From the NCBI GenBank assembly GCA_000092065.1, contig CP000593.1: a stretch of 64,000 bases of DNA; one strand, written 5' to 3'. Source of the stretch: Ostreococcus lucimarinus. Its lineage: Eukaryota. Positions 4,412 to 43,129 of this stretch are shown here, piece by piece (the first letter of the stretch is position 1; every line of letters begins with the position of its first letter). Made by a program: the position numbers and the translations under genes. The notes below the pieces were generated by a model. The model ran no database searches. It had not been told where the DNA came from and saw only the letters and a list, made by a program, of their open reading frames with translations.

Positions 4412-4479
4412 GTCCGCCTTCCCGTCCCGGCCCGGCGTCGCCGAGCGACCGACCGCCCACCGCGCCGCCGTCGGCTCGA

Positions 4480-4487
4480 AGATATTT
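4480..4487 (-). promoter_or_regulatory. Evening Element (AAATATCT) on the minus strand, about 350 bp upstream of the TOC1-like PRR start
   Basis: The plus strand reads gaAGATATTTtcaacg, and AGATATTT is the reverse complement of AAATATCT. It lies in the 425-bp spacer between the upstream gene's stop (4411) and the PRR ATG (4836). Confidence 0.45.
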
Positions 4488-4539
4488 TCAACGGGACGCA
4501 TCATTGCGGGAGATCCCTTTTGCATACCCTTCAACACGC

Positions 4540-4544
4540 GTGTA
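4540..4544 (+). promoter_or_regulatory. TGTAA putative poly(A) signal for the 3593-4411 gene; adjacent ACACGCGTGT palindrome
   Basis: The sequence caacACGCGTgTAAtacgtacattta contains a TGTAA pentamer and an MluI/MCB-like ACGCGT core in an inverted repeat. Confidence 0.35.
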
Positions 4545-4835
4545 ATACGTACATTTATCACACGTCTGCGAATATCCCGCGTTTCGCTTTTTCGCGGCGA
4601 AAAAGCGTCGTCGAAAAGATTCGCTCGAGCCCCCCCGCGCCGGGTCGCGACTCGTCGATCGCGCGTCGCGCGCGCCCCGCATTCTCAGGCACACGACGCG
4701 CGCGACGATCGACGCGGCGGCGCGATCGACGCGCGGCGCGGCGCGGCGCGGCGCGGCGCGAAAACCAGCGTCCGTCGCGTCGTCCGGACCGCGCTCGACG
4801 ACGCGACGGAGGCGCGGCGACGGGCGCGAGCGACG

Positions 4836-6590
4836 ATGCGGGACGACGACGCGATGGGCGCGACGCGACTCGCGGACGCGCTCGCGGACGCGGTCGAGGA
4901 CGCGAGCGCGAGAAACGCGGGCGGGGGGGGGGGACGCGCGGGACGCGCGCGCGCGAAGACGAATGGGAAGAGCGCGCGACCGAGGTTGAACGACGCGGGC
5001 GCGCACTTGAGAGTGCTGCTGGCGACGGACGACGCGCACACGCGAAAGATGGTGGAATCGATGCTGCGCGAGCTCGGGGTGGAGGTGGTGGCGGCGACGA
5101 ATGGGAACGAAGTCTTGGACGTCTTGCGGGGGGCGCCGAAGAGCGCGAGGGAGGACACGTCGGTGGATATGATTTTGCTCGACGTGTTGATGCCCGAACT
5201 CGACGGGGAAGTCGAACTGGTGGAGGCGTGTAAGGCGAACGAAACCCTGCGCGGGGTGCCGATCGTCATCATGTCCACCGTGGACGAGCGCAAGGCGTGC
5301 AAGACGCGATTTGAAAATTCGGGCGCCGCCGGTTTCTTGACGAAACCGGTGAACCGCATCGAGTTGAAGGAGAGCTTGGCGCACACGCGGGCGTTAAAAA
5401 GCCACGAAAGTGGTAGCGTTGAAGGTGAGGGTTCGGGTTCGGGGAACTGCATGGATCCAAACGACAACGTCGGCGGGAGCGCAAAGTCGTCGCTCACCAA
5501 GCTCACGAGCAGGGAAAAAGTCGCGGGGGGCTCGGGCGGTGGGCAAAACGATTCGGGGAGCGATAATCAATACAACGAAAAACCGCTCACGAGACGCGCC
5601 GAAGCCGAAGCGATCGATCGATGGGCCAGTCGCGAGGGTGGGTCGGGAGACTGCGGCTCGGGCGGCTCGGGTCAAGGCACGGGAAGCGGTAGCGGCTCCC
5701 ACGAAGGCTCGGGGTCGGGCCAGCGTGATCCAAACGACGGCGAAAAGTTCCGCGGCTTGAGCGTGCAACTCATCAAGGCGCACGGTGGGGCAACGACTAT
5801 GCTCGAACTCTCTTTACCAGAGCACGCGTCTGAGCACGTCGTCGTTCGACGATCAAACTCGCGTTCGGCGTTCAAGGGGTTTCAAAACTACCTTAAGAAC
5901 GAAAACAAGGATACCGCGGTGCAAATGATGAGCGTTGACTTGACGCAGCAGCATCACTCGTTTTATGAAGCGTCTTCCATGATGCCACCGTCAGATTTCG
6001 CCAAATTTTACGGACCGATTATGCCGAAGATGGAAATGCCCGTGCCGCCGCCGATGCCGCCGTACGCCGATATGAACCAATTCTCCGCCGCCGCCGCCGC
6101 CGCCGCCGCGGTGGCGGCGTCTTCGGTCGACGCTTCAGTGATGGATCAATCGTATATGGCGAATCCGTTTTTCAACGTTTTACAAACTGCGGCCGATCAC
6201 ACCCAGCAGACGAGCTCGAGCCAAGCCGCCGAGCATCGCGCCGCGGCGATTCGACGCTTTTTGAAGAAGCGCAAGGAAAGGAACTTCGAAAAGAAAGTTC
6301 TTTACCCTTCGCGACAAAAGCTCTCGGAATCCCGTCCTCGCGTTCGCGGACAGTTCACTCGAAACAACGATGAAACGACGACGACGACGACGACGACTGA
6401 AAACGTCTCAAACGGATCGGACAACAAACCAAAGTCGAACGAAACCAACGCGAGCGAGGCGAACAAGGTCGGCGAAGTCGAAGGCAAGGGAGTGGACGAG
6501 TACGGTCACGGCTCGAACGAAGGTTCGAACGAAGGTTCGAAAGAAGGCTCCCGAAGTTCTTCCGGCGCCGAAGGCGAAGGCTCCAAGTAA
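4836..6590 (+). CDS. TOC1: Pseudo-response regulator: N-terminal receiver-like domain plus C-terminal CCT motif; TOC1-like circadian clock component
   Basis: 584-aa ORF with an ATG at 4836. The receiver-like region is LRVLLATDD...MILLDVLMPELDG...TKPV. The C-terminal CCT motif RAAAIRRFLKKRKERNFEKKVLYPSRQKLSESRPRVRGQFTR is typical of PRR/CO/TOC1 proteins. Gly/Ser-rich repeats and poly-Ala and poly-Thr tracts lie between the two. Confidence 0.85.
   Translation: MRDDDAMGATRLADALADAVEDASARNAGGGGGRAGRARAKTNGKSARPRLNDAGAHLRVLLATDDAHTRKMVESMLRELGVEVVAATNGNEVLDVLRGAPKSAREDTSVDMILLDVLMPELDGEVELVEACKANETLRGVPIVIMSTVDERKACKTRFENSGAAGFLTKPVNRIELKESLAHTRALKSHESGSVEGEGSGSGNCMDPNDNVGGSAKSSLTKLTSREKVAGGSGGGQNDSGSDNQYNEKPLTRRAEAEAIDRWASREGGSGDCGSGGSGQGTGSGSGSHEGSGSGQRDPNDGEKFRGLSVQLIKAHGGATTMLELSLPEHASEHVVVRRSNSRSAFKGFQNYLKNENKDTAVQMMSVDLTQQHHSFYEASSMMPPSDFAKFYGPIMPKMEMPVPPPMPPYADMNQFSAAAAAAAAVAASSVDASVMDQSYMANPFFNVLQTAADHTQQTSSSQAAEHRAAAIRRFLKKRKERNFEKKVLYPSRQKLSESRPRVRGQFTRNNDETTTTTTTTENVSNGSDNKPKSNETNASEANKVGEVEGKGVDEYGHGSNEGSNEGSKEGSRSSSGAEGEGSK
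6085..6108 (+). repeat. (CCG)8 trinucleotide repeat encoding poly-Ala inside the PRR gene
   Basis: The stretch ccgccgccgccgccgccgccgccg translates to AAAAAAAA. Confidence 0.8.
6375..6398 (+). repeat. (ACG)7-8 trinucleotide repeat encoding poly-Thr inside the PRR gene
   Basis: The stretch acgacgacgacgacgacgacgact translates to TTTTTTTT. Confidence 0.8.
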
Positions 6591-27298: not shown

Positions 27299-28741
27299 AT
27301 GCGTCGTCGCGCGCAGGCATCGATGAAACCGAAGACGCAATCGCTGAGTTTTGTGAATGGCTACGCGATTCCTCGAGACTCGGACGGCGAGGTCGATGTG
27401 TTCGACGCGAACGCGTTCGCGGACGCGCCCGCGCGCGGCGAGGCGAAGGCGTACGCGCCCGAGTACGTTAAATTGCACGGGCTCGTCTTGCGATTTAACG
27501 CGTATTTTGATGAAACCGTCGAAAACGGTCAAAAGGAGAGCGCGAGATGCCGGAAATGCGTCATTTACTTTTTCCTCGAGGACGGATCGATCAAAATCAC
27601 GGAACCGCGCGTGGAGAACAGCGGCATGCCCCAAGGCGCGTTTCTCAAGCGTCACGTCGTGCGCGGCGTGACTTTGGGAGATTTAAACGTTGGCAAAGCG
27701 GTAACGATCTACGGGTTCGAGTTTAAAATTTATCGCTGCGATGGATTCACGCGCGATTACCTCGGACGCGTCGGCGTCGATGTCCCGAATGATGAGCGCG
27801 AACCCGACGGCGTCGGTCCGTCGTGGGAGGAGGTTCGGCTCGCGCGTCGCGCCGCGCGTTCTACGAAGAAGGATGCTCGAGGGAAATTTCTCACGCACGA
27901 CAAGCAAGTGCTTCGCTTCTACTGCGTTTGGGACGACAGGTCGAAATTCGGCGACAGGCGAAGATTTGTTCTGACGTTCTTTCTCATCGACGACACCGTC
28001 GCCATCACCGAAGTCGAAGCGAACAAATCGGGGCGAGGAAGCGGGATGTCTTCGACGCTTCTGCACAGGTCCAGATTACCTCTGCGCGATGAAGATGCGA
28101 ACGCCAGAGGTCTAGCGAACGATGATTTCGATTATGTCACCGCGGAAGACTTGCACGTCGGGGACACGATTCGAGTGTACAAGAGAGATTTCTTCATCTA
28201 CGACTGCGACGAATTCACGAAGTCGTGGTACCTGACGAAATTCCCGGGCGAGTTGACGGAGGCTGCTTTCGAGCCGCACGACGTCACCGAGCCCGAGGAT
28301 ACTGTTCCAGCGCATCGCATACCTGAGCACACAGGTCTCGCCATCGGGAGCGAAGAGGACAGCTTGCAAAACTGCATTTCGCTCATTCCCAAGCCGCCGC
28401 GCAAGGACGTCGCGAAGGATGACGAAATCGTTTTGCAGTTTCGCGCCGAAATGGTCCCGATCAGCGACGCTGATGAAGTGTGCGAATTCGATGCTTCGCG
28501 TCGTTTTGTGGTCTCGTTCCACGTCGGTGACAAGACGTTGTCAATTTTCGAACAAGCGTCAAAGGACAGTTGCTCGAGCAAGTTTCTGGAGCGCGCCAGA
28601 GTCAGGAAGCGCGACGAGACGGGCGCGTTTTACGACTTGCGCGACATGCGCGTGGGTTCGGTGCTCGAAATTCACTCTCGCGCTTTCAAGCTCGGCGAGA
28701 GCGACGAATTCACGCGCAAGTACCTCGAAAACGCGGTGTGA
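27299..28741 (+). CDS. EFHC1/EFHC2/Rib72-like protein with three DM10 domains (ciliary microtubule inner protein)
   Basis: Conserved blocks recalled from human EFHC1 are present: LSFVNGYAIPRDS (LSYRNGYAIVRRP), NSGMPQGAFLKRHVV (NSGILQGKLIKRQRL), FKIYRCDGFTRDYL (FRVVDCDQFTQVFL), QNCISLIPKPPRKDV (QNCFALIPKAPKKDV). DM10 domains 1-3 are evident. The ATG is at 27299 (alternative 27323). Confidence 0.85.
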   Translation: MRRRAQASMKPKTQSLSFVNGYAIPRDSDGEVDVFDANAFADAPARGEAKAYAPEYVKLHGLVLRFNAYFDETVENGQKESARCRKCVIYFFLEDGSIKITEPRVENSGMPQGAFLKRHVVRGVTLGDLNVGKAVTIYGFEFKIYRCDGFTRDYLGRVGVDVPNDEREPDGVGPSWEEVRLARRAARSTKKDARGKFLTHDKQVLRFYCVWDDRSKFGDRRRFVLTFFLIDDTVAITEVEANKSGRGSGMSSTLLHRSRLPLRDEDANARGLANDDFDYVTAEDLHVGDTIRVYKRDFFIYDCDEFTKSWYLTKFPGELTEAAFEPHDVTEPEDTVPAHRIPEHTGLAIGSEEDSLQNCISLIPKPPRKDVAKDDEIVLQFRAEMVPISDADEVCEFDASRRFVVSFHVGDKTLSIFEQASKDSCSSKFLERARVRKRDETGAFYDLRDMRVGSVLEIHSRAFKLGESDEFTRKYLENAV

Positions 28742-34125: not shown

Positions 34126-35361
34126 ATGGGATCGCTGTGCTGTTGCCTGCTGGAATGCTTTCGGTACGAGGATAAGGTCTGGGCGGGCGACGCGGCGCTC
34201 GGGGTGGATTGCGAATTTCGCGGGTGCGATTGGGCGCGCGTCGACGACCTGAGCGCGGGGAGCGAGGACAAGCCGATGGTGCTGTATCAGGGAATCATCG
34301 AACCTCGGGACTGCGTGCAGGGCCAGCTCGGGGATTGTTGGTTGGTGAGCGCGCTGGCGTGCCTGGCGGAACACCCGGGAGCGATCAAACGGTTGATATT
34401 GAACGGGGAAAAGTCGCTTCGCGGCAAGTATCGCGTGCGGTTTTACGACGGCAAGGAGAAGAGGTGGGTCACCGTGACGGTGGACGATCTCATTCCTTGT
34501 TACAAGGGGACGAAGAATCCGATATTTATGCAACCGCACAACAACGAGTTTTGGCCTTTGATCGTGGAGAAGGCGATGGCTAAGTTTATGGGGAGCTACG
34601 CCGCGCTGGACGGCGGGTTCGGCACGTGGGCCACGCACGCGCTCACGGGCGATAACGTCTTCTTGCTCAAGAAGCGCATGGACGTCGAACGCACGTGGCG
34701 GCGACACAACATGAAGTTTATCGGTAAGCCCGGTGACGGCGGTAAGAAGGATCGCATCTATCACGAAGAAGTCGAGGAAAACATCGTGCGCGATAAATTG
34801 TTCAACATCCTGACCCAGTACGACAGCATCAAGTCCCTGATCGCCGTGTCGAGGATGACTAAAAATGGCGAGAGCAAAGACGAAACCACCGGCTTGGTGT
34901 CCGGTCACTTGTTCTCCGTCATCTCCGTGCGTTGGGCTGGACGCTCTTGGGGCGTCGGTGGAAAGCGTTTCATCAAGCTTCGCAATCCGTGGTCGACGTT
35001 TGAATGGAAGGGCGCTTGGGCTGATGGATCGAAAGAATGGGACAAACACCCGGCCATCGCGAAGGAGCTCGCGTACGTGAACGATCATCACGACGGCGTG
35101 TTTTGGATGGAGTTTGACGATTTTTGCGAGTACTTCAACCAAATCGCGGTGTGTGACCGAACGACAAAGCGCGACTTTTCGCTCCGGTACGATCACGACA
35201 ATAAATATTGTGGTCCATTGATGGGCTGCGTGAGCGGTTGTGCGTGCTTCTGGTGCGGATGCCAAGGTCCGTACAAACTTTATTGCGGACACCAATCGAC
35301 GACCGAAACGCGTCAGGCGACCAAGTGCTGCGGCACGATGAAAGTCGCGAACGACGCGTGA
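34126..35361 (+). CDS. Calpain-type cysteine protease (catalytic core), N-terminally acylatable
   Basis: The catalytic motifs are QGQLGDCWLVSALA (Cys), SGHLFSV (His) and LRNPWSTFEWKG (Asn). The start is taken at ATG 34126 (MGSLCCCLLECF…, a myristoylation/palmitoylation-like N-terminus) rather than the upstream GTG-initiated ORF at 33937. Confidence 0.85.
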   Translation: MGSLCCCLLECFRYEDKVWAGDAALGVDCEFRGCDWARVDDLSAGSEDKPMVLYQGIIEPRDCVQGQLGDCWLVSALACLAEHPGAIKRLILNGEKSLRGKYRVRFYDGKEKRWVTVTVDDLIPCYKGTKNPIFMQPHNNEFWPLIVEKAMAKFMGSYAALDGGFGTWATHALTGDNVFLLKKRMDVERTWRRHNMKFIGKPGDGGKKDRIYHEEVEENIVRDKLFNILTQYDSIKSLIAVSRMTKNGESKDETTGLVSGHLFSVISVRWAGRSWGVGGKRFIKLRNPWSTFEWKGAWADGSKEWDKHPAIAKELAYVNDHHDGVFWMEFDDFCEYFNQIAVCDRTTKRDFSLRYDHDNKYCGPLMGCVSGCACFWCGCQGPYKLYCGHQSTTETRQATKCCGTMKVANDA

Positions 35362-35393
35362 ATAAATTAACGACTACTTTACGCGAGTCGGCT

Positions 35394-35398
35394 TGTAA
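35394..35398 (+). promoter_or_regulatory. TGTAA putative poly(A) signal after the calpain gene
   Basis: The sequence gcTTGTAAtgaatttgag lies about 33 nt after the stop. Confidence 0.35.
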
Positions 35399-35691
35399 TG
35401 AATTTGAGAGCTCTGTCTCCGCGTTTCGCGACACTCCGTGCGTTATTTAAGCCACTATCGACAGAAGGTCGCCGGAAACGGGGCACATGACCATTTTGAA
35501 AATGTCCCACCTCACTTCGACGATGCCGCGCACGCCTCGAAGGCGATGGCCCAGCGCTGTCTCCCGCGAGCAACTGTAATAAAGTAATCACGTGCGTCCA
35601 CAAAGTATTCATTCGTGTTGTTATTTCAATTCAAATGGCGTGTTTTTGCGTCGCTGGTGGTTTTTACTAGGACGAGGGAGAAGAGAAACGC

Positions 35692-37635
35692 TTACGGGAG
35701 CGTGTACTTGCCAGGCTTGTCGAAGACGTACTCGGCCGTTTCGTTTTTCTTCACGACGAATCCCGCGAGCGCGTCGACTTCGGGCGCACCTTTGCCGGTC
35801 GGCTTCCACTGCCAACCCTTGTTCGTCACTTTCAAACCATCGACGATGACTTCCGCGCCCTCGCACGCCTTGATGACGAGCGCACCATCCACTTCGACGT
35901 TTTTCAAATTGACGCCAGAGCCTTCGACGACGAGCGCGCTCTTCGCGCCCAACTTGACGGCGCCGACTTTCGACTTGAGTTCATCAAAAGATGTGGCGAC
36001 ATCCGGACCGAGCACAACACGTGGACCCATGGGAAGCTTCATACCGTTGAATTCAGCGTCGACGGCGGCGGCGGGGACGTCGGCACCGGCCAAACGCAAC
36101 AAGTTTGCGCACGATTCGTAAAACTCAAACTCGCCGCTCGTCGCCGTGTGCGTCGGGCCGTTAGATTTGAACTTGGCCAAACCGTCCGCCGGAGAGTTCT
36201 TCACCGGGCTGTAGCCAATCCAGTTCGCAAAGACGGTGAAACCAACCTTAGCCTTCGATCCGAGGCTCTTGGGATAGTCTTGCATCATGCACTCCAATCG
36301 CGTCGGCGATTTGAAAGCCGTCTTTGTCTCATCCTTGTACTTGGGATTGACGAATTCTTCGATCGCGCCGCCAGTCTTCTTGAGTTGTTTTGCGTACTCT
36401 GGAAGACTCACGATGAGCTGATTGATGTTACCCGGGAATGGGGAGAAGCCCGTGGCATCGTTGACGTCGCCTTCGGGATTCGTAGTGGCTCGCAAAAGCG
36501 GATCGAGCTGGTTGTATTCGACGTTGATGGTCATCTTGCGTCCATCCTCGTGAGTTAGCAACGAAATCGCACCGACCGCTTCCTTGGCTTTTCGCGGAAC
36601 GCACAAAGAATTGAACTCAAGATTCATCGTCTTCGACACCCCGAGCGCACCAGGGATGACGCGGAACACGAGCGAGTTCGTGTCTTGAAAGAAGACGACC
36701 CACTTCTTGCCTTGGCTCATCCACTTTGATAACAACCCGCTCGTGTGCAGGAGAGAGTGCACGTCACCGTGGCCGTGCGGCTTGAGCGCGAGCTTGTAAG
36801 GATCGTCGTCTTTCACCGCCAAACGTGCATCGTTATCCATCAAGCACGGCACCTTTTCTTGCTTCATGAGCGTGATTTGATCGCGAGACGCGCCAAAGTA
36901 ATCGTTGCGTTCGAGCAAATCGAGCGTCAGCGCGTGCGTGTCCTCCGACGTCATGATCGCCAACGGAATCTTCGTGGACGATTTCGCCTTCGCGCCGCCA
37001 CCGCCGAAGCACCCGCACCCACCCGCGTTCGTCGCACCCTCCGCACCCTCCGCGCGTTTCTCCATCGCCAAGATATTCTTCACGTACAACTCCAAATAGC
37101 ACGCGTTCGTCGCCCGCTCCACCGGCAGCGCGACCTTGATCCCCGAGTACCCCAATCGCTCTCCCAACCCCCCCGCGACGAGCACGAAGCACGTCTCCGC
37201 CGTCTCCCGCATCCCAATCTTCTCCAGAATCTCGTGCGCCGCCGATCCGTACTCCACCGTCTTCCCCGTGGGCACGCTCGGCGTCCATCCCTCGAACGGA
37301 TTCTTCCCCTCCTTCGACGCCCTCAGCAGCTCGCGCGCGTTCGACACGTACTTCGCCACCCCCCCCGGGTACCCCCGATCCGCCCGTCGCACTTCCTCGA
37401 CGAACGCGCGCTTCCTCTCGTCGTCCACGCCCGGCGCCGGCCAATCCGCGATCAGATGCGCTTGTCCCAGCGCGATCGTTTCGCGCAGCGTCCGCGCGTC
37501 GTCCGTCGTCAGCGCGCCGCGCGCGACGTGCGCGTCGACGACGGCCGTCGCGCTCGCGCGCGCGTCGTCCATCGCGGCCATCGCGCGCGTCGTCGTCCGT
37601 CGTCGCGCGGCGTCGGCGCGCGCGCGCGCGTTCAT
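35692..37635 (-). CDS. USP: UDP-sugar pyrophosphorylase (plant USP type)
   Basis: About 648 aa. Conserved UDPGP-family blocks include LVAGGLGERLG, MKQEKVPCLMDNDARLAVK…KPHGHGDVHSLLHTSGLL and FFQDTNSL, and overall co-linearity with plant USP. The ORF-track start (TTG 37719) lies inside the promoter repeat, so ATG 37635 is used. Confidence 0.85.
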   Translation of the reverse strand: MNARARADAARRRTTTRAMAAMDDARASATAVVDAHVARGALTTDDARTLRETIALGQAHLIADWPAPGVDDERKRAFVEEVRRADRGYPGGVAKYVSNARELLRASKEGKNPFEGWTPSVPTGKTVEYGSAAHEILEKIGMRETAETCFVLVAGGLGERLGYSGIKVALPVERATNACYLELYVKNILAMEKRAEGAEGATNAGGCGCFGGGGAKAKSSTKIPLAIMTSEDTHALTLDLLERNDYFGASRDQITLMKQEKVPCLMDNDARLAVKDDDPYKLALKPHGHGDVHSLLHTSGLLSKWMSQGKKWVVFFQDTNSLVFRVIPGALGVSKTMNLEFNSLCVPRKAKEAVGAISLLTHEDGRKMTINVEYNQLDPLLRATTNPEGDVNDATGFSPFPGNINQLIVSLPEYAKQLKKTGGAIEEFVNPKYKDETKTAFKSPTRLECMMQDYPKSLGSKAKVGFTVFANWIGYSPVKNSPADGLAKFKSNGPTHTATSGEFEFYESCANLLRLAGADVPAAAVDAEFNGMKLPMGPRVVLGPDVATSFDELKSKVGAVKLGAKSALVVEGSGVNLKNVEVDGALVIKACEGAEVIVDGLKVTNKGWQWKPTGKGAPEVDALAGFVVKKNETAEYVFDKPGKYTLP

Positions 37636-37691
37636 TTCCGACACGTATGGGTAAACAGTCACAAGATTTCCGACACGTATGGGTAAACAGT
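37635..37691. repeat. Tandem direct repeat of 25 bp (TTTCCGACACGTATGGGTAAACAGT) x2 with a 7-bp spacer, in the bidirectional USP/primase promoter
   Basis: Copies at 37635-37659 and 37667-37691 are identical. Each contains an ACGT core (ACACGTAT) and an ATG that spuriously opens ORFs 37647 and 37679. Confidence 0.85.
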
Positions 37692-37733
37692 GCGAAGACA
37701 CACACGGGAGGATTTTCAAACGCCGCGACAGGT

Positions 37734-37744
37734 GGCGCGAAAAA
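37734..37744 (-). promoter_or_regulatory. E2F-type site (TTTTCGCGCC on the minus strand) about 200 bp upstream of the DNA primase start
   Basis: The plus strand reads ggtGGCGCGAAAAAttta, which is the reverse complement of TTTTTCGCGCC. Confidence 0.4.
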
Positions 37745-37943
37745 TTTAAAATTCCAGCGACGACCGCGCGACTGCGCGACGCGCGGCGCGACGCGACGCG
37801 ACGCGGGAGACGCGCGCGCGCGGCGAAGCTTTCGAGGCGTCGGACGCGCGAACGAACGCGAGAACAAACGCGAGACGACGCGAGAGACGACGCGGGAGAC
37901 GCGCCGACGCGGTGACGATCGACGCGGTGACGATCGACAAAGG

Positions 37944-39248
37944 ATGGCGACGGTCGAACCGGAGACGAAGCGATTGAAGACGGAGGATGGGGAGAAGGAA
38001 AACGTCGCGCTCAACACGGGGAACGTGGGGAAGGCGCGGGTGAAGAGCTTGATGTATAGGTATTATAAACAATTTTACCCGGCGGATCTGTTGTTCAAGT
38101 GGTTGGCGCACGGAAACGACGAACGACACGCGAGGGCGGAGAAGACGTACCCGAGCCGGCGGGAGTTTTGTTTCGTGCTGGATAAGGAACAAGAAGAGGG
38201 CGGGGGAGAGATTTTTGCGCGGTATCAGAGTTTCGTGGACGCGAAGGATTTTAAGACAAACGTGGAGCGGAAAAAGCCGGCGCGCATCGAATTCGGGCCG
38301 ATTTGTAACCGCAGACCGTCCGACAGGCACACGGTGGAGTTAAAACCGGAGGAGCGGGAGTTGGTTTTTGATATCGATATGACGGATTACGACGACGTGC
38401 GGACGTGCTGCAAGGAGGCTGGGATCTGTGGAAAGTGCTGGCCGTTGATGACGGTGGCGCTCAAGGTGCTCGACGTCGGCTTGCGCGAGGATTTCGGTTT
38501 CAAGCACTTGTTGTGGGTCTATTCCGGTCGTCGCGGTATTCACTGCTGGATCAGCGATGAGCGCGCGAGAAAGTTGAGCGACGAAGCTCGCTCTGCGGTT
38601 GCCGAGTATTTCGCCGTCGTCAAGGGCGAGGGTCAGGGGCGCCGCGTGTTGTCGTCGACGCCGATGCACCCTTCGGTGAAGCGCGCGTACGACGGCGTCT
38701 TGAAACAATATTGGATCGAGTCGTACTTGCCCACGCAGCGAATTCTCGAGGACAAAACCAAGCTCGAGCAACTCCTCAATCTGATTCCCGACGAAAACAT
38801 TAGAGAGGATCTCGCGTCGGAGTTTGCGACGAGTTCGCTCAACTCGGTCGACCGCTGGGGTGTCATCGAGCGCCGCGTGCAAGACTCTTTGAAGAAAAAT
38901 AATTACAAGCTTACCGGTGCGCTCGAAAAGATAATCCTCTGGCACATCTACCCTCGAGTCGATATCGAGGTGTCTAGACACATGAATCACTTGTTGAAGG
39001 GTCCGTTTTGCGTTCACCCAAAAACTGGGCGTGTGTGCGTGCCCATGGATCCCGCCACCGCGGATTCCTTCAATCCGGAACTCGTGCCCACCGTCGTCGA
39101 TCTGGATTCCGGTGCGCAAACCTTAGACGGGGCGATCAAAACTTTTAACGACACGTTCTGGAACGCGTGCGCGAGGGAAAACATCGAGCGGCTCACCGCA
39201 AAGACGCGTCAAGCCAAGGCGGAGCAACAGTCTGGGATGGAATTCTAA
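37944..39248 (+). CDS. PRIM1: DNA primase small (catalytic) subunit, PRIM1/Pri1
   Basis: About 434 aa from ATG 37944 (MATVEPETKRLK…). The eukaryotic PriS blocks are FKHLLWVYSGRRGIHCWISDERARKL, ELVFDIDMTDYDD and HLLKGPFCVHPKTGRVCVPMD. The upstream 99 codons of the ORF-track ORF are Arg-rich promoter sequence. Confidence 0.85.
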   Translation: MATVEPETKRLKTEDGEKENVALNTGNVGKARVKSLMYRYYKQFYPADLLFKWLAHGNDERHARAEKTYPSRREFCFVLDKEQEEGGGEIFARYQSFVDAKDFKTNVERKKPARIEFGPICNRRPSDRHTVELKPEERELVFDIDMTDYDDVRTCCKEAGICGKCWPLMTVALKVLDVGLREDFGFKHLLWVYSGRRGIHCWISDERARKLSDEARSAVAEYFAVVKGEGQGRRVLSSTPMHPSVKRAYDGVLKQYWIESYLPTQRILEDKTKLEQLLNLIPDENIREDLASEFATSSLNSVDRWGVIERRVQDSLKKNNYKLTGALEKIILWHIYPRVDIEVSRHMNHLLKGPFCVHPKTGRVCVPMDPATADSFNPELVPTVVDLDSGAQTLDGAIKTFNDTFWNACARENIERLTAKTRQAKAEQQSGMEF

Positions 39249-39260
39249 ATGATGAACTTG

Positions 39261-39265
39261 TGTAA
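39261..39265 (+). promoter_or_regulatory. TGTAA putative poly(A) signal after the primase gene
   Basis: The sequence gaactTGTGTAAttgaaag. Confidence 0.35.
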
Positions 39266-39308
39266 TTGAAAGAGAAAGATTTCGTTAAATTAATTGAATA
39301 GTACTTAA

Positions 39309-40445
39309 TTATGGCGCGTTTCTCGCGAGCGACCACTTATCGTCGTCGTCGTCGTCGTCTTGGCTCACAGGCGTCAATTCTATCGACATTAAGCGTTCGC
39401 TCGAACTCAACACCTCTTGCCACGTCGGCGGCTTGCTCTTGTCAAAGTACACGTTCTCGACCACGGTTGTGTCCCAACTCTCCCCCGTAGTGCTGTTCCC
39501 AAACTTTCGCACGCTACCATCGGGGGATAACACTTCTCCCCACGTCCGGCTGAACCGTTCGCCATCTTCACCGACGCGCCACGTCTCCCCGCTCTTGCGT
39601 CCGCTGCCAATCTTGCTTCGGCGCTCTTCCCATTTATCGCCCCATCGCATCCCCATGCCGTTCTCCGCCCACTTATCCGTCCACTTCAGCGTCGCGCCCT
39701 CGCCATCGTACTGCTCTCCCCACTTCTCCCACCACGCCTGTCGAACCTCTCGCCCGCTCTTTTCCACCCCTCGCTCGACGGCGCCGTTGGCGTAGTACCG
39801 CTCCCACCACTTCTCCTGCCACTCCTTACTCTGCGCGTCTCGCGCCCACTTATCGGCGCTCCTCTCGATGTGTTCGACGCCCGTAAAATCATCCCGGCAA
39901 TAGATCTCTCGCCACGTCTCCCACCACGTCTCACCCGTGTCGTTAAATCCGCTCTTCTCGAACCCGAGCTCCTTGTAACCGCTAAAATCGCACTTCGCCC
40001 ACCGCGTCTCGCTCGATCCGCTTCGCCCATCCGGGCAATCTCTCTTCGTCGTCCACCACCTCGACTGATACCCACCTTCTCCACGATCGAATCCTCGCTT
40101 TCGCGTCGTCTTCATTCCTCCCTTCTCCTCCACGGACGTCGACGTTTCCCGGTTTCCGCCTCGCGCGCCGTCCTCGCTCGCGCCCGCCGCGCCGTCGTCC
40201 TCGTCGTCCGCGTCCTCGAACGCCTCGTCCTCTTTCGCGATCCCCGTGTCGCGCTGCGGCGGTTTCGCGCGCGTTCGCACGTCTCCTCGCGGTGCGTCGC
40301 CGCCGCAGACGCGTCCGCGGCGCGCGCGCGCGTCGATCGCGCGCGTCGATCGCGCGCCGCGCGATCGCGTCGTCGTCGTCGTCGCGCGTTCACGGCGCGT
40401 CGCCGCGGCGCGCGGAGACGCGCGGCGGAGCGACGCGATCGTCAT
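39309..40445 (-). CDS. Tryptophan-rich repeat protein with a transit-peptide-like N-terminus (plastid-type; ESV1/LESV-like is a speculative assignment)
   Basis: ORF 39309-41168 overlaps the 3' end of the upstream helicase gene, so ATG 40445 is used (MTIASLRRASPRAAATRRERATTTTTRSRGARS…). The C-terminal about 230 aa contain a roughly 14-15-aa periodic motif G-x(3-5)-W-x(2)-K-W-x-E (WWETWREIY, WQEKWWERYY, AWWEKWGEQYDG, KWTDKWAENG, RWGDKWEERR, TWRVGEDG, RTWGEV). It ends in poly-Asp. Confidence 0.55.
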   Translation of the reverse strand: MTIASLRRASPRAAATRRERATTTTTRSRGARSTRAIDARARRGRVCGGDAPRGDVRTRAKPPQRDTGIAKEDEAFEDADDEDDGAAGASEDGARGGNRETSTSVEEKGGMKTTRKRGFDRGEGGYQSRWWTTKRDCPDGRSGSSETRWAKCDFSGYKELGFEKSGFNDTGETWWETWREIYCRDDFTGVEHIERSADKWARDAQSKEWQEKWWERYYANGAVERGVEKSGREVRQAWWEKWGEQYDGEGATLKWTDKWAENGMGMRWGDKWEERRSKIGSGRKSGETWRVGEDGERFSRTWGEVLSPDGSVRKFGNSTTGESWDTTVVENVYFDKSKPPTWQEVLSSSERLMSIELTPVSQDDDDDDDKWSLARNAP

Positions 40446-40639
40446 CTCGTCGCGCGACCGGGTCGCGCGATCGCGGCGCGCCGGGCTGTGCGGACGCGCG
40501 ATCGCGTCATCGTGTCGGTTGGGCGCGCGCGGGCGCCGGCGCGAGACGGATTCGCGGCGCGCCGACGAGGGGACGAAGCGACGAGACGAAGGCGCGGATG
40601 CGGACGAAATCGACGGAATGAGGGAGATGCGCGACAAAA

Positions 40640-43129
40640 CTACTTTCTGCGGTACTTGCTGGCGCTCTTGAACTTGCCGCGGGCGGTCTTGAAGGGCTTG
40701 GCGGGGGCGCCCGGGCTCGCGCCGCGAAATCCTCCGCGGAAATCGGCGCCGCGGCCGGAGGATTGGACGCGCGCGTCGTCGTCGTCGTGGACGTCGGCGC
40801 GCGCGGCGCGCTTGGCCTTGGCCTTGGGATCGCGCGCGTTTTTGACCATGCGGACGACTTTGGTGGCGACGCCGCCGGTCAAGCGGGCCTCGCGTTCGAT
40901 GGCTTTGACGGATTTGACGCCCTTGGTCACGCGAAAGCCGCCTCGAGGGGTGTCGTCGTCGCCGCGCTCCTTTTTGTATAGCGCCTGTTGCGCGAGTTTG
41001 CGTCGCGCGCGCTTGCTGTCGGGTAAACGATCGGGACCGGCCGCTTCCTGTCGGCGCTTGGCGCCCTTGCGGTGAGACTTTCGATCCATCAAGTCCATTT
41101 CGGCTGTTTCCATCGCCTTGAGCGCGTCTTTTTGCGCGTTGCGTTTGTCGCGTTCGCTCTGGAACCATGTCTTCGCCGGTCGCGATTTGATCTCAGCCGC
41201 GTGCTCGAGAATGTTCGAAGCCTTATTTGCCTCCATTTCGGCCTTTTGAAGCTGACGTTCGGTGCGCTCTTCGTAGTTGATTTGCACAATTTGCTCCTCC
41301 ATATCCTCGATTTTCTTGTGCCACTCGGCGACGATGTTCCCGGGCACGATTCGCGCTTTGAGGTTCGCCCCTCGTTTTGCTATGGTTTTGACTAGTTTAC
41401 GATCGGATTCTTCCATGAAGGTCAACGCCGTGCCTTTCTTCCCCGCGCGCGCTGTGCGCCCGACTCGGTGTAAATAGCTCGCCAAAGTCTTCGGCGCGTC
41501 GAACGAAATCACCGCGTCGACGGATGGAATATCCAAGCCTCTGGCGGCGACGTCTGTGGCGATCAAATGCGTGACTGTGCCCGTCCTAAATTCATCGAGC
41601 GCTGCTAAGCGCTGCGTCTGCGTCATGTCCCCGTGTAACTCACCCGCTTTGATGTCGCTTAAACCCATGATGATCTTCAAACGATGCGCCTCTTGCTTGG
41701 TTTGGGAAAATATAATGGTCGACTTGTCGTAAGAACGACTCACAATGGCCATCAAGAACGCCTCTTTCTGAGCACTTTGGTTAGGTTTGAGCTTTAACAC
41801 TTCCTCCACCAACCGCTTGGGCGTCGTGCCGAGCGTGTCCGCGGAAAGCCTCGCCGGATTCTTCATCGAAAGACTCGCCAGCGCCTCGACGCCGGCGGTG
41901 AGCGTGGCGCTGAATAATAACGTTTGGCGCTTCTTCGGGCATTGTCGAACAATTTCTTTGATCTCTTCCAAGAATCCCATCTCCAGCAAACGATCGGCTT
42001 CGTCTAAAATCAACGTCGCGAGATCTTCTAGCCCAAACGAGTGCGTGTTTCGCACGTGGTCGATGACGCGACCGGGCGTCGCCACGACAATTTCGGGTCG
42101 AGTGCGCAGCGCAGCTGCTTGCACGTTCGCCGACAATCCACCGACGACGAGCACGGCTCGAATTGTTGTAAACTGCGCGAGACTTTCCGTCATTTGATGC
42201 ACCTGAACCGCAAGTTCGCGCGTCGGCACCAAGACCAACACGTGCGTCGCCGCCGCCGGCCTCGGTCCTCGATGTAACATCCGCTCCAACTGCGGCAGCA
42301 TAAACGCCGCCGTCTTCCCGCTCCCCGTTACCGCTCGCCCGCAGACGTCGCGACCAGTCATCGCGATCGGAATCACCGCCGCCTGAATCGGTGTCGGTTT
42401 CTTATACCCGAGCGCCTCGCACGCTCGCGTCAGCGGCCGCGACAGGTGCAACTCGTCGAACGCCTTCGCGTCGAACGTCGTGTCCCCTTTCGCCCCCTTG
42501 ACGACCGCGCGCTCTTGAAACCCATCCTCCGACTCGGAATCACTCTCCGACGACGTCGCCGTCGCCGTGGGCGTCTTTGCTTTCTCGTCCTTCGCCGCGT
42601 CTTCCTCGCGCGCCTCGCGCTCTTCCTCGCCTTCGCTCGTCCCATCCTCCTCTTCCTCCTCGCGCTCGCGCTCGCGCTCGCGCTCGCTCTCGCTCTCGTC
42701 GTCGTCATCATCACCGCTCTCGCTCTCCTCACCACTCTCGCTGTCTCCACTGACGCTCGCGTCGTCATCCGTCTCGCCGTCGTCCTCGCCCGGCAGCGGC
42801 GCGTCCTCCGAGTCGCTCCCGTACTCGTCCTCCGACCCACCCGCGCTCGCGCTCCCTCGCCTCCCGCGCCCTCTCGCCCGCGCGATCTTCTCGTCCACGC
42901 TCGTCATCTTGTTCGCTCGCAGCTCGCGCGCGCGCGCCTCGCGCGCGTCGCCAAAGTTCCACGCCTCGGTCGCCGCGCGTCCGCCGCCGCCGCCGCCGCG
43001 TCCCTTCGTCGCTCGTCCCGCGCGCGTCCCGCGCCCGTCGTCGTCGTCCGACGCGTCGAACGTGAACGAGGGGTTAAACTCGACGTCGCTCCCGTCCGCG
43101 TCCGCGTCGGCGGTCGACGCGCGCGGCAT
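40640..43129 (-). CDS. DEAD-box ATP-dependent RNA helicase, DDX27/Drs1-like
   Basis: The motifs are Q (FDELHLSRPLTRA…PTPIQ), I (AVTGSGKT), Ia (PTRELA), II (DEAD), III (SAT) and VI (HRVGRTARAG). A long acidic N-terminal region and a basic C-terminal tail flank the core. The ORF opens at 43192 (GTG); the first ATG is at about 43129. Confidence 0.85.
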   Translation of the reverse strand: MPRASTADADADGSDVEFNPSFTFDASDDDDGRGTRAGRATKGRGGGGGGRAATEAWNFGDAREARARELRANKMTSVDEKIARARGRGRRGSASAGGSEDEYGSDSEDAPLPGEDDGETDDDASVSGDSESGEESESGDDDDDESESEREREREREEEEEDGTSEGEEEREAREEDAAKDEKAKTPTATATSSESDSESEDGFQERAVVKGAKGDTTFDAKAFDELHLSRPLTRACEALGYKKPTPIQAAVIPIAMTGRDVCGRAVTGSGKTAAFMLPQLERMLHRGPRPAAATHVLVLVPTRELAVQVHQMTESLAQFTTIRAVLVVGGLSANVQAAALRTRPEIVVATPGRVIDHVRNTHSFGLEDLATLILDEADRLLEMGFLEEIKEIVRQCPKKRQTLLFSATLTAGVEALASLSMKNPARLSADTLGTTPKRLVEEVLKLKPNQSAQKEAFLMAIVSRSYDKSTIIFSQTKQEAHRLKIIMGLSDIKAGELHGDMTQTQRLAALDEFRTGTVTHLIATDVAARGLDIPSVDAVISFDAPKTLASYLHRVGRTARAGKKGTALTFMEESDRKLVKTIAKRGANLKARIVPGNIVAEWHKKIEDMEEQIVQINYEERTERQLQKAEMEANKASNILEHAAEIKSRPAKTWFQSERDKRNAQKDALKAMETAEMDLMDRKSHRKGAKRRQEAAGPDRLPDSKRARRKLAQQALYKKERGDDDTPRGGFRVTKGVKSVKAIEREARLTGGVATKVVRMVKNARDPKAKAKRAARADVHDDDDARVQSSGRGADFRGGFRGASPGAPAKPFKTARGKFKSASKYRRK

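Follow-up and report, generated by a model that had tools for sequence, protein, structure and literature searches.

A 32-bp tandem duplication in the divergent USP-DNA primase promoter of Ostreococcus lucimarinus: variation among marine haplotypes and a conserved core beside the repeat

Introduction

A 2009 study of yeast by Vinces et al. in Science reportedly found, in the words of its title, that 'Unstable tandem repeats in promoters confer transcriptional evolvability'. Two other kinds of promoter element are relevant to the locus described here. The G-box (CACGTG) and the ABRE (consensus ACGTG(G/T)C) are plant elements bound by bZIP or bHLH factors, and E2F/DP sites (TTTSSCGC) are found in the promoters of S-phase genes of both animals and plants.

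Among the picoalgae, Ostreococcus has an Rb/E2F pathway, and the cyclin B promoter of O. tauri is reported to contain an E2F motif (PMC2873908). In strain RCC809, the motif assigned to E2F is GTTCCCC and intergenic lengths peak near 200 bp, and bHLH-type CCACGTGG motifs have been reported in Ostreococcus promoters (PMC10662239). Intergenic and synonymous diversity were reported to be about equal in O. tauri (PMC5498103).

The present analysis concerns a repeat between the genes for UDP-sugar pyrophosphorylase (USP) and the small subunit of DNA primase in O. lucimarinus. It lies in a 64,000-nt stretch of genomic DNA (the window), to which all positions refer, and was compared with the corresponding region of related haplotypes and of more distant clades.

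Materials and Methods

Thirty-six related haplotypes were recovered from independent marine metagenomes. The index of the contig collection lists the identical primase protein in 285 blocks, of which 24 contigs, all of them metagenome assemblies, were read. Contigs were selected by this identical primase protein, and others by the exact 25-mer of the repeat; metagenome contigs are consensus sequences and possibly mosaics of strains. Lineage B consists of L023-L029, L031 and L032. The sister clade (L011 and L019-22) has 94% primase identity and the L033 clade 60%. The closest named relative by primase is O. tauri (L014), at 65% identity.

Results and Discussion

The preliminary description of the window had placed the repeat in a spacer between divergent USP and primase genes, and Pfam confirms this arrangement, with a UDPGP-family gene on the minus strand and the primase small subunit on the plus strand (Table 1). 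The spacer is 362-371 bp long, measured from start codon to start codon, and the gene order is kept as far as O. tauri. As in other short bidirectional promoters of picoalgae, a lower-GC core in the middle is bordered by a CG-rich leader on either side, but this spacer is longer than is typical and, in its clade, far more polymorphic than its neighbours. The USP leader is variable at 16 of 33 sites between 37601 and 37633, and includes a stretch of about 15 nt with about 10 alleles. The copy number of the 66-bp repeat adjoining the 32-bp array also varies; L001 lacks exactly one 66-nt unit of this USP-side repeat, with the reading frame kept. A scan of 37300-38100 with Rfam covariance models returned no structured RNA at E<=1.

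Table 1. Features of the USP-primase region (positions in the window).
Feature	Position	Strand	Details
UDP-sugar pyrophosphorylase (USP) gene, UDPGP family	35692..37581	-	ORF and Pfam PF01704, E=2e-21
Tandem repeat of period 66 bp, USP N-terminal region and leader	37493..37631	.	Tandem Repeats Finder (TRF) score 160, 2.1 copies
USP start	37581 or 37572	-	Start-codon polymorphism among haplotypes
Hypervariable CG-rich USP leader	37573..37633	-	With (GC)7 tract 37616-37629 and non-conserved upstream ATG 37635-37633
Repeat unit 1 (extra copy, nearest to USP)	37634..37665	.	ATTTCCGACACGTATGGGTAAACAGT and tail CACAAG
ACGT-core octamer	37641..37648	.	ACACGTAT; second copy 37673-37680
Repeat unit 2 (conserved copy, orthologous to other clades)	37666..37697	.	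Same 26-mer and tail GCGAAG
Conserved element in unit 2	37677..37692	.	GTATGGGTAAACAGTG; paralogous copy 37645-37659
Conserved lower-GC promoter core	37698..37763	.	GC 48% vs 60-80% in flanks
Core word	37708-37720		GAGGATTTTCAAA
Core word	37725-37734		GCGACAGGTG
E2F-consensus match	37734..37744	-	TTTTTCGCGCC; 8-mer TTTCGCGC at 37735-37742 matches TTTSSCGC
Core word, TATA-like	37739-37754		GAAAAATTTAAAATTC
Primase-side leader, CG-rich, variable	37764..37943	+	34/180 sites variable
Perfect 15-bp x2 tandem repeat in primase leader	37905-37934		TRF score 68
DNA primase small-subunit gene	37944..39248	+	Pfam PF01896, E=1.3e-46

Within the spacer, a 26-nt sequence occurs at 37634-37659 and again at 37666-37691. 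The perfect 25-bp duplication reported previously (TTTCCGACACGTATGGGTAAACAGT, plus strand, 37635-37659 and 37667-37691) is therefore real, and its identity runs one base further to the left. The repeat units are 32 bp in length and stand head-to-tail without unrelated sequence between them. They match at 29 of 32 positions (91%) and differ only in their tails (Table 1). There is next to no chance that the structure is an artefact of assembly or sequencing, as over 30 contigs, assembled independently in different projects and with different assemblers, contain the same two units. The genome is very rich in short tandem repeats, TRF giving 245 rows of score >=30 and 42 of score >=60 in 64 kb; the 32-bp array is not among the latter. 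The array is unusual in not being CG-rich low-complexity sequence.

The repeat had also been described as directly abutting the USP start codon. This is true of the O. lucimarinus haplotype only. Of 31 haplotypes, 7 have the adjoining ATG (CAT at 37633-37635) in frame; of the other 24, 14 read ACG instead and 10 have an ATG that is out of frame. The conserved USP ATGs are at 37581-37579 and 37572-37570.

The possibility that the 25-mer is a dispersed cis-element had been raised as well. Allowing up to three mismatches, no further copy was found in the 64-kb window (0/100 shuffles matched). In the metagenome collection the exact 25-mer was present in four contigs, every one at the USP-primase locus, and a BLAST search with the 32-bp unit against all collected loci gave no match besides that site. 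In the window and the metagenomes searched, the repeat is confined to a single locus and is not dispersed. The sequence RYAAACAGTG occurs once in the window. GTAAACA resembles the forkhead site, RYAAAYA; green algae are not known to have forkhead factors.

Two copies of the unit are carried by 33 of the 36 haplotypes (23 of lineage A, nine of lineage B and one further, L015) and one copy by two haplotypes of lineage A (L002 and L003), while one rearranged contig has none; a three-copy allele was not seen among the 36. In L030 an apparent junction joins XRN to primase. Lineage B shares the 32-bp period and the junction (GCGAAGA/TTTCC) of lineage A, with diverged units, and the sister clade has a single unit. 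This distribution shows that the duplication arose once, in an ancestor common to lineages A and B, after the split from the sister clade; since it is common to both lineages, it predates their separation.

The two units differ in variability. Across 22 haplotypes, 12 of 32 sites vary in unit 1 and 3 of 32 in unit 2 (Fisher P=0.016); the regions used for comparison with unit 1 were the USP-side flank (16/33 variable) and the core (7/66). The tail of unit 1 forms an allele series (GCG, CCG, CTG, CAG, CAC). Unit 2 had no variable site (0/32) in 13 lineage-A haplotypes, and a later sample added single changes in L039 (CGAGACGT) and L017 (tail GCAAAG). The substitution rate of unit 1 is therefore close to that of the unconstrained flanks, and unit 2 and the adjoining lower-GC core (2/66 sites variable in lineage A) are almost invariant. 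In lineage B, an insertion of 76-83 bp separates unit 2 from the core, leaving the distance to USP unchanged and shifting the element away from primase. The inserted sequences are unique, with no BLAST match elsewhere in the collected loci. That lineage B tolerates them would imply a modular promoter, which counts for the explanation preferred below.

These results bear on the earlier argument that a perfect duplication in non-coding DNA must be either very recent or under selection. This choice is not supported, as the duplication is older than the split of lineages A and B, a one-copy allele is segregating and the extra copy changes at about the rate of the flanks. The preliminary description had added that a 25-mer absent elsewhere, together with sister strains lacking the duplication, would make a neutral recent event likely. 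The 25-mer is indeed not dispersed, and by that reasoning the result points to a neutral duplication.

Comparison with more distant clades shows which part of the unit is maintained. The 3' half of unit 2 is retained in the sister clade as CGTATGGGCAAACAGTGCGAAGAC, and the word GTATGGGTA is common to the L033 clade; words of this element are shared significantly with L011 (P<0.0005) and modestly with L033 (P=0.023). In O. tauri, AAACAGTG looks conserved to the eye, but the match falls short of significance (P=0.21) and is given no weight as conservation. On these alignments the conserved part of the unit, and the candidate for function, is GTATGGGYAAACAGTG and not the ACGT core. The lower-GC core likewise has words in common with L011, L033, L013 and L037.

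The preliminary description had centred on the ACGT, regarded as a G-box/ABRE-like site for bZIP or bHLH factors. An ACGT is present in each copy, and one base shifted on the minus strand (37640-37647) each unit reads TACGTGTC, in which ACGTGTC fits the ABRE-type consensus; the site is also duplicated, as ABRE pairs often are. In most lineage-A haplotypes the two cores do not differ, the orthologous spacer of O. tauri has a perfect CACGTG beside AAACAGTG, and bHLH-type motifs have been reported from Ostreococcus promoters (PMC10662239). However, the G-box hexamer itself is not in the unit (plus strand CACGTA, minus strand TACGTG), and the word match to O. tauri given above is not significant. 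Across lineages no part of the unit is less conserved than the core, which is not maintained among related promoters. It is lost from copy 1 in L001, L015 and L048, and from both copies throughout lineage B, where copy 1 has ACACTT (ACACTTAT) and copy 2 has ACGCGT or ACGCGC (ACGCG(T/C)AT). The sister clade reads ATCGTAT at this position, and the L033 and L013 clades have no ACGT adjoining the ATGGGT word; O. tauri is alone in having a CACGTG close by. With one-copy alleles also in existence, a doubled bZIP or bHLH site kept by selection appears improbable. A somewhat better case, though still an unlikely one, can be made for an advantage of two copies of the half-element ATGGGYAAACAGT, through dimeric or co-operative binding of a putative factor, an arrangement that would have been reached independently as a direct repeat here and as an inverted repeat in the sister clade. 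The latter carries ACTGTTTGCCCAT-CGT-ATGGGCAAACAGT, with perfect inverted arms of 13 nt (L011 2737-2765), and because the element thus occurs twice there, in inverted orientation, two copies may be favoured. The two-copy allele is the major one in lineages A and B, and ATGGGTA is present in both copies in 32 of the 33 two-copy haplotypes, the sole exception being copy 1 of L031 (ATGGGTC). Against this, the half-element of copy 1 is often changed (GTACACAG, AAACGG, GTCAACAG), one-copy alleles persist, and in the L033 clade the only copy is not palindromic. Both palindromes and tandem duplications, moreover, commonly arise by template switching.

The E2F-like site is separate from the duplication and belongs to the conserved core block. 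It had been called a textbook E2F site, and it does match the consensus exactly (TTTSGCGCS), with exactly 200 bp between it and the primase ATG. Across 31 haplotypes of lineages A and B the 8-mer shows no variation, inside a core in which variability is far below that of the flanks (10-48%). Lying in a block that is strongly conserved, the site may take part in primase regulation. With the E2F/DP sites of animals and plants it shares the exact consensus, the position upstream of a replication gene, the conserved surroundings and an Rb/E2F pathway in the genus, which, with the O. tauri cyclin B motif, favours a working site (PMC2873908). It differs from them in showing no enrichment over chance and in being absent from orthologous spacers. 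The window contains 31 such 8-mers, against 39.2 +/- 6.4 expected from shuffles, and about 0.15 matches are expected per 310-bp spacer. Only 2 of the 31 are intergenic, the other one preceding a TOC1-like clock gene, and none of the 32 window genes scanned for co-occurrence with E2F sites was another replication gene. Neither TTTSSCGC nor GCGSSAAA was found in the USP-primase spacer of six other clades (L011, L019, L013, L014, L033, L035, L037); the sister clade reads G(T/C)GCGCAAAAA, the L033 sequence is without GCGC, and the RCC809 motif GTTCCCC is absent as well. A functional E2F/DP site conferring S-phase expression on primase, independently of the duplication, is thus a tentative proposal with the balance somewhat against it. 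Far less probable is that the conserved ATG of each unit begins an upstream ORF or an N-terminal extension on the primase mRNA. From the ATG at 37647 the primase frame is open without an intervening stop (ORF 37647-39248), and ATGGG is kept in most clades, but the predicted peptide is Arg-rich and of low complexity, as is typical of GC-rich non-coding DNA. Its length and frame differ between lineages and, by a change in the length of an A-run, within the sister clade; the lineage-B insertion introduces an early stop, a TATA-like box lies downstream of both ATGs, and gene calls and orthologues begin at 37944. A coding extension was dismissed on the grounds of this unstable frame and length.

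The reading preferred here is that the repeat is probably an ordinary, near-neutral promoter duplication that doubled a cis-element by accident, neutrality being judged from variation patterns only. Its origin may have been slippage during replication, an unequal exchange or the repair of a break at a spot prone to breakage. In doing so it would have doubled a genuine candidate cis-element, GTATGGGYAAACAGTG, most likely part of the USP-proximal half of the promoter or of the USP leader, and the second copy would be redundant and nearly neutral. The perfect identity of the 25-mers is not, on the variation observed, evidence of selection; it may simply be the retained ancestral state, the three differences between the units happening to fall in the 6-nt tail. 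The abundance of short tandem repeats and the variable 66-bp unit next door provide a background that favours an ordinary duplication. Some observations run against neutrality, namely that the 25-mers are still identical in 19 of 25 lineage-A haplotypes despite a very variable spacer, that the sister clade carries the element twice, and that the two-copy allele is the major one in both lineages. Identical 25-mers with differences confined to the tails could mean that both cores are under some constraint, or that gene conversion acts between the two. Like the yeast promoter repeats, the array is head-to-tail, varies in copy number between natural isolates and occupies the lower-GC region adjoining the core promoter. 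It consists, however, of one or two copies of a complex 32-bp unit and not of a many-copy AT-rich microsatellite, and its variation suggests a redundant extra copy instead of a tuning device.

The spacer as a whole is also exceptional in its diversity. In lineages A and B about 7% of its positions are substituted, compared with about 1% in other spacers and 0.34% in coding DNA, which makes it about 7 times as variable as the neighbouring spacers, and the 31 contigs comprise 27 distinct haplotypes. At least three independent structural events have occurred at one junction (37693-37694), and the boundary of the duplication is 4 bp away. Amid the 371-bp variable spacer, a 98-bp island (copy 2 and the core) is almost invariant. 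Tracts of (CG)n were considered as a cause of the hypervariability: those of at least 4 units are about 6 times more variable, but nearly all of this comes from two tracts within the spacer, and other tracts of 6-7 units are invariant. Selection bias from fetching contigs by primase was likewise rejected, as USP and the far flanks are invariant too and contigs fetched by the 25-mer have the same pattern; the sister clade, also fetched by primase, has no diversity peak. The duplication may be one sign of an instability that is specific to these lineages and very local to the USP-primase spacer, a suggestion to which we give a minor share of credence. One reading would be that breaks recur at the nucleosome-free centre of the promoter, as at a hotspot of recombination or double-strand breaks or at a fragile point linked to replication, and are repaired mutagenically, a process curbed only by selection on the promoter core. 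The alternative is balancing or diversifying selection on the leaders.

Conclusions

As originally posed, the finding matters little, since neither a selected ACGT pair nor a textbook E2F site stands up to comparison across populations and species. The diversity peak and the recurrent breakpoints are unexpected in an otherwise nearly invariant locus. To our knowledge, few cis-elements are known in the genus Ostreococcus, for which transformation is available. Natural variation marks the constrained 98-bp stretch as a candidate regulatory module, and GTATGGGYAAACAGTG, GAGGATTTTCAAA, GCGACAGGTG and the TATA-like GAAAAATTTAAAATTC are concrete candidates for promoter dissection. If the diversity peak represents a site locally prone to breakage, such sites could be mapped in uncultured picoalgae by means of environmental metagenomes.

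The USP-Primase Spacer and Its Repeat

The spacer between the divergent genes for UDP-sugar pyrophosphorylase (USP) and the DNA primase small subunit carries the 25-mer TTTCCGACACGTATGGGTAAACAGT twice (37635–37659 and 37667–37691), as noted in the preliminary description. The identity reaches one base further left, and the full repeat consists of two contiguous 32 bp units, copy 1 on the USP side and copy 2 next to the promoter core, which are unlike only in their final six bases (CACAAG versus GCGAAG). The 64 kb window holds no further copy of the 25-mer at up to three mismatches, and 100 shuffles gave no match. The idea of a dispersed element fails, since a search of the metagenome collection for the exact 25-mer yielded only four contigs, each of them at the USP-primase locus, and BLAST of the 32 bp unit against all collected sequences gave no match outside that locus. 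Short tandem repeats abound (TRF over the 64 kb returned 245 rows at a score of at least 30 and 42 at a score of at least 60), so a tandem duplication is not unusual in this genome, and the only special trait of the 32 bp repeat is that it is not CG-rich low-complexity sequence. The 15 bp repeat near the primase start is present in lineage B as two diverged units, CGACGCGAAAGACGAT and CGACGCGGGGACGAT.

The core of the spacer, some 100 bp long, is lower in GC (48%) than the leaders on either side (60–80%). The repeat had been placed directly against the USP start codon. It does adjoin an ATG in the window (37635–37633, minus strand), but this is not a conserved USP start: across 31 haplotypes it reads ACG in 14, is out of frame in 10 and is in frame in only seven. 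The conserved USP ATGs are at 37581–37579 and 37572–37570, with at least one kept in every haplotype, so the repeat lies 53–62 bp upstream of the likely USP start, in the predicted USP proximal promoter or leader. Mechanical ORFs (37647–39248 and 35692–37719) extend across the entire spacer on either strand, as stop codons are few in GC-rich DNA, and the extended USP starts differ among several metagenome gene callers, with products of 521 to 656 aa.

Features of the window and of related contigs (window positions unless a contig is named)
Feature	Position	Description
TOC1-like gene	4836–6590; promoter 4412–4835	response-regulator receiver domain and CCT motif
Evening-element-like AGATATTTT	4480–4488	promoter of TOC1-like gene
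Palindromic GCTTTTTCGCGGCGAAAAAGC	4586–4606	promoter of TOC1-like gene
E2F 8-mer	4756	promoter of TOC1-like gene; only other intergenic copy in window
Gene for protein with three DM10 domains	27299–28741	Rib72/EFHC type
USP	flanks spacer	UDPGP family; minus strand
DNA primase small subunit	flanks spacer	plus strand
Tandem repeat, period 66 bp	37493–37631	TRF score 160; USP N-terminal region and leader
32 bp repeat	37634–37665 and 37666–37697	two contiguous units; 29/32 positions match
Perfect 15 bp × 2 tandem repeat CGACGCGGTGACGAT	37905–37934	10 bp upstream of primase ATG
Insertion, L023 type	L023 2678–2753	76 bp; at junction 37693–37694
Insertion, unrelated to L023 type	L032 290–372	83 bp; at junction 37693–37694
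Joined sequence in L030	L030 2698–2762	primase promoter (window 37694 onward) joined to XRN 5'-3' exonuclease gene
Inverted-arm palindrome of conserved element	L011 2737–2765; also L019–L022	13 nt arms, perfect in L011

Related Loci

Spacer haplotypes were gathered (n = 36) from two very close lineages, A (the window and 24 contigs) and B (ten contigs, with a primase three nucleotides away from that of A), together with L015, a single lineage A-like contig from the 25-mer scan that was kept outside both. A sister clade (L011, L019–22) shares 94% primase identity; further outgroups are L013 (69%), Ostreococcus tauri (L014, 65%), which is the nearest named relative, L037 (also 65%) and L033–36 (60%). 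An identical primase protein occurs in 285 indexed blocks of the contig collection, and all 24 contigs read were from metagenome assemblies. O. tauri and several other clades share the gene order calpain, USP, primase, LESV-domain protein and DEAD helicase. From these relationships we infer that the window belongs to a wild alga resembling Ostreococcus. DM10 proteins of the Rib72/EFHC type normally occur in ciliary microtubules, and the three-DM10 protein of the window is odd in a genus regarded as without flagella.

Age and Decay of the Duplication

One unit is present in L002 and L003 and two in all remaining lineage A haplotypes; no three-copy allele was seen among the haplotypes collected. 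The view that the duplication is very recent is contradicted by lineage B, which has the identical period and junction (GCGAAGA/TTTCC) with diverged units, copy 1 reading TT(G/T)CCGACACTTATGGGTACACAG(C/T)GCGAAGA and copy 2 TTTCCGACGCG(T/C)ATGGGTAAACAGTGCGAA. The economical reading would be a single duplication event predating the A/B split. Within each lineage, the two units are separated by about three fixed differences; in lineage A all of these are in the tail, where intermediate alleles (GCG, CCG, CTG, CAG, CAC) are still present. Among 22 aligned haplotypes, 12 of 32 sites vary in copy 1 against 3 of 32 in copy 2 (Fisher P = 0.016), with 16/33 in the USP-side flank and 7/66 in the core, a pattern in which copy 1 appears to drift and copy 2 does not. 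The duplication is real and of moderate age, its copy number still varies, and it is restricted to a single locus. It would by accident have doubled a genuine promoter element, the extra copy now being in decay, and is an ordinary promoter tandem duplication of a kind already known.

Conserved Element and Candidate Factor Sites

In the sister clade only one unit is present, CGTATGGGCAAACAGTGCGAAGAC, which lacks ACGT (ATCGTAT instead), and an inverted copy to its left gives the palindrome ACTGTTTGCCCAT-CGT-ATGGGCAAACAGT; L019–22 carry one mismatch in the left arm. Word sharing between the island formed by copy 2 and the core (37666–37763) and the spacers of other clades, assessed against shuffles, was highly significant for the sister clade (P < 0.0005), modest for L033 (P = 0.023) and not significant for O. 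tauri or L013. Three words, GTATGGGTA, GCGACAGGTG and GAAAAATT, are colinear between the window and the 60%-identity clade. From the sharing with the sister clade and L033, the 3' half of the unit, GTATGGGYAAACAGTG, is identified as the conserved element. ACGT has been lost from both copies in lineage B and from copy 1 in L001, L015 and L048; it is the least conserved part of the unit, and the proposed G-box/ABRE-like reading is not supported. In lineage B, an insertion of 76–83 bp, at a site holding two different insertion sequences, separates copy 2 from the core, leaving the distance to USP unchanged and lengthening that to primase, which suggests that the element is part of the USP side or else insensitive to distance. 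At the repeat-equivalent position, L013 (2786–2832) carries three spaced copies of (G/A)GGACTCG, a motif unlike the window repeat.

The preliminary description also recognised a textbook E2F site. The minus-strand sequence TTTTTCGCGCC does lie at 37734–37744, 200 bp from the primase ATG, and matches the E2F/DP consensus TTTSSCGC, but as an E2F site it is unproven and statistically unremarkable. The 8-mer occurs 31 times in the window, below the 39 ± 6 of shuffles, and a spacer of such length would be expected to hold about 0.15 matches. Apart from this copy, the only intergenic one is found 80 bp upstream of the gene for a TOC1-like pseudo-response regulator. The 8-mer was absent throughout the USP-primase spacer of six other clades; the sister clade reads G(T/C)GCGCAAAAA at this position, and L033 lacks the match-creating GCGC. 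Against this, the 8-mer does not vary among 31 haplotypes and lies inside the constrained core, and the Rb/E2F pathway works in Ostreococcus (PMC2873908). We regard 37734–37744 as a candidate, and a rather doubtful one, for a working E2F site.

A Diversity Peak and a Recurrent Junction

Across the 7.3 kb locus, lineages A and B show 0–3 variable sites per 100 bp, mostly 0, and no third-position differences in the primase coding sequence. The exception is 37600–37900, where lineage A has 15, 5 and 13 variable sites per 100 bp and lineage B has 21, 8 and 9; the 31 spacer sequences comprise 27 distinct haplotypes. When four contigs fetched by the 25-mer were compared with the window over 18.6 kb, the USP-primase spacer (371 bp) had 27 substituted positions (7.3%) as well as 8 indel positions, ten other spacers (2536 bp) had 25 substituted positions (1.0%), and coding DNA had 53 (23 synonymous, 30 non-synonymous; 0.34%). 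In O. tauri, intergenic diversity is about equal to synonymous diversity (PMC5498103). The peak is sharp (37573–37943, compared with 34943–42248), with an invariant 98 bp island mid-spacer. Between A and B, primase (window 37944–39248, L023 3001–4305) has three differences, each at a first or second position of its codon; the spacer alongside shows seven fixed differences and many polymorphisms.

Structural events cluster at the peak, including the 32 bp copy-number change, a 66 nt loss, insertions and the L030 join. L001 is missing exactly one 66 nt unit, in frame, so the USP N-terminus varies in length as well. Three different structural events, the two insertions and the L030 join, fall at one junction just past copy 2 (37693–37694). 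No second copy of either insertion sequence was found in the collected sequences, and the XRN gene of L030 is absent from the window.

Neither (CG)n tracts, which are not generally variable, nor the fetching method, by which the sister clade was also retrieved without a peak, was retained as a cause. Our preferred guess is that the DNA breaks easily at this spot and is repaired mutagenically. The alternatives are balancing selection and mosaic assemblies, and L030 could itself be a chimeric assembly. Whether caused by a break-prone site or otherwise, both the hypervariability of this spacer and its recurrent breakpoint merit a further look.
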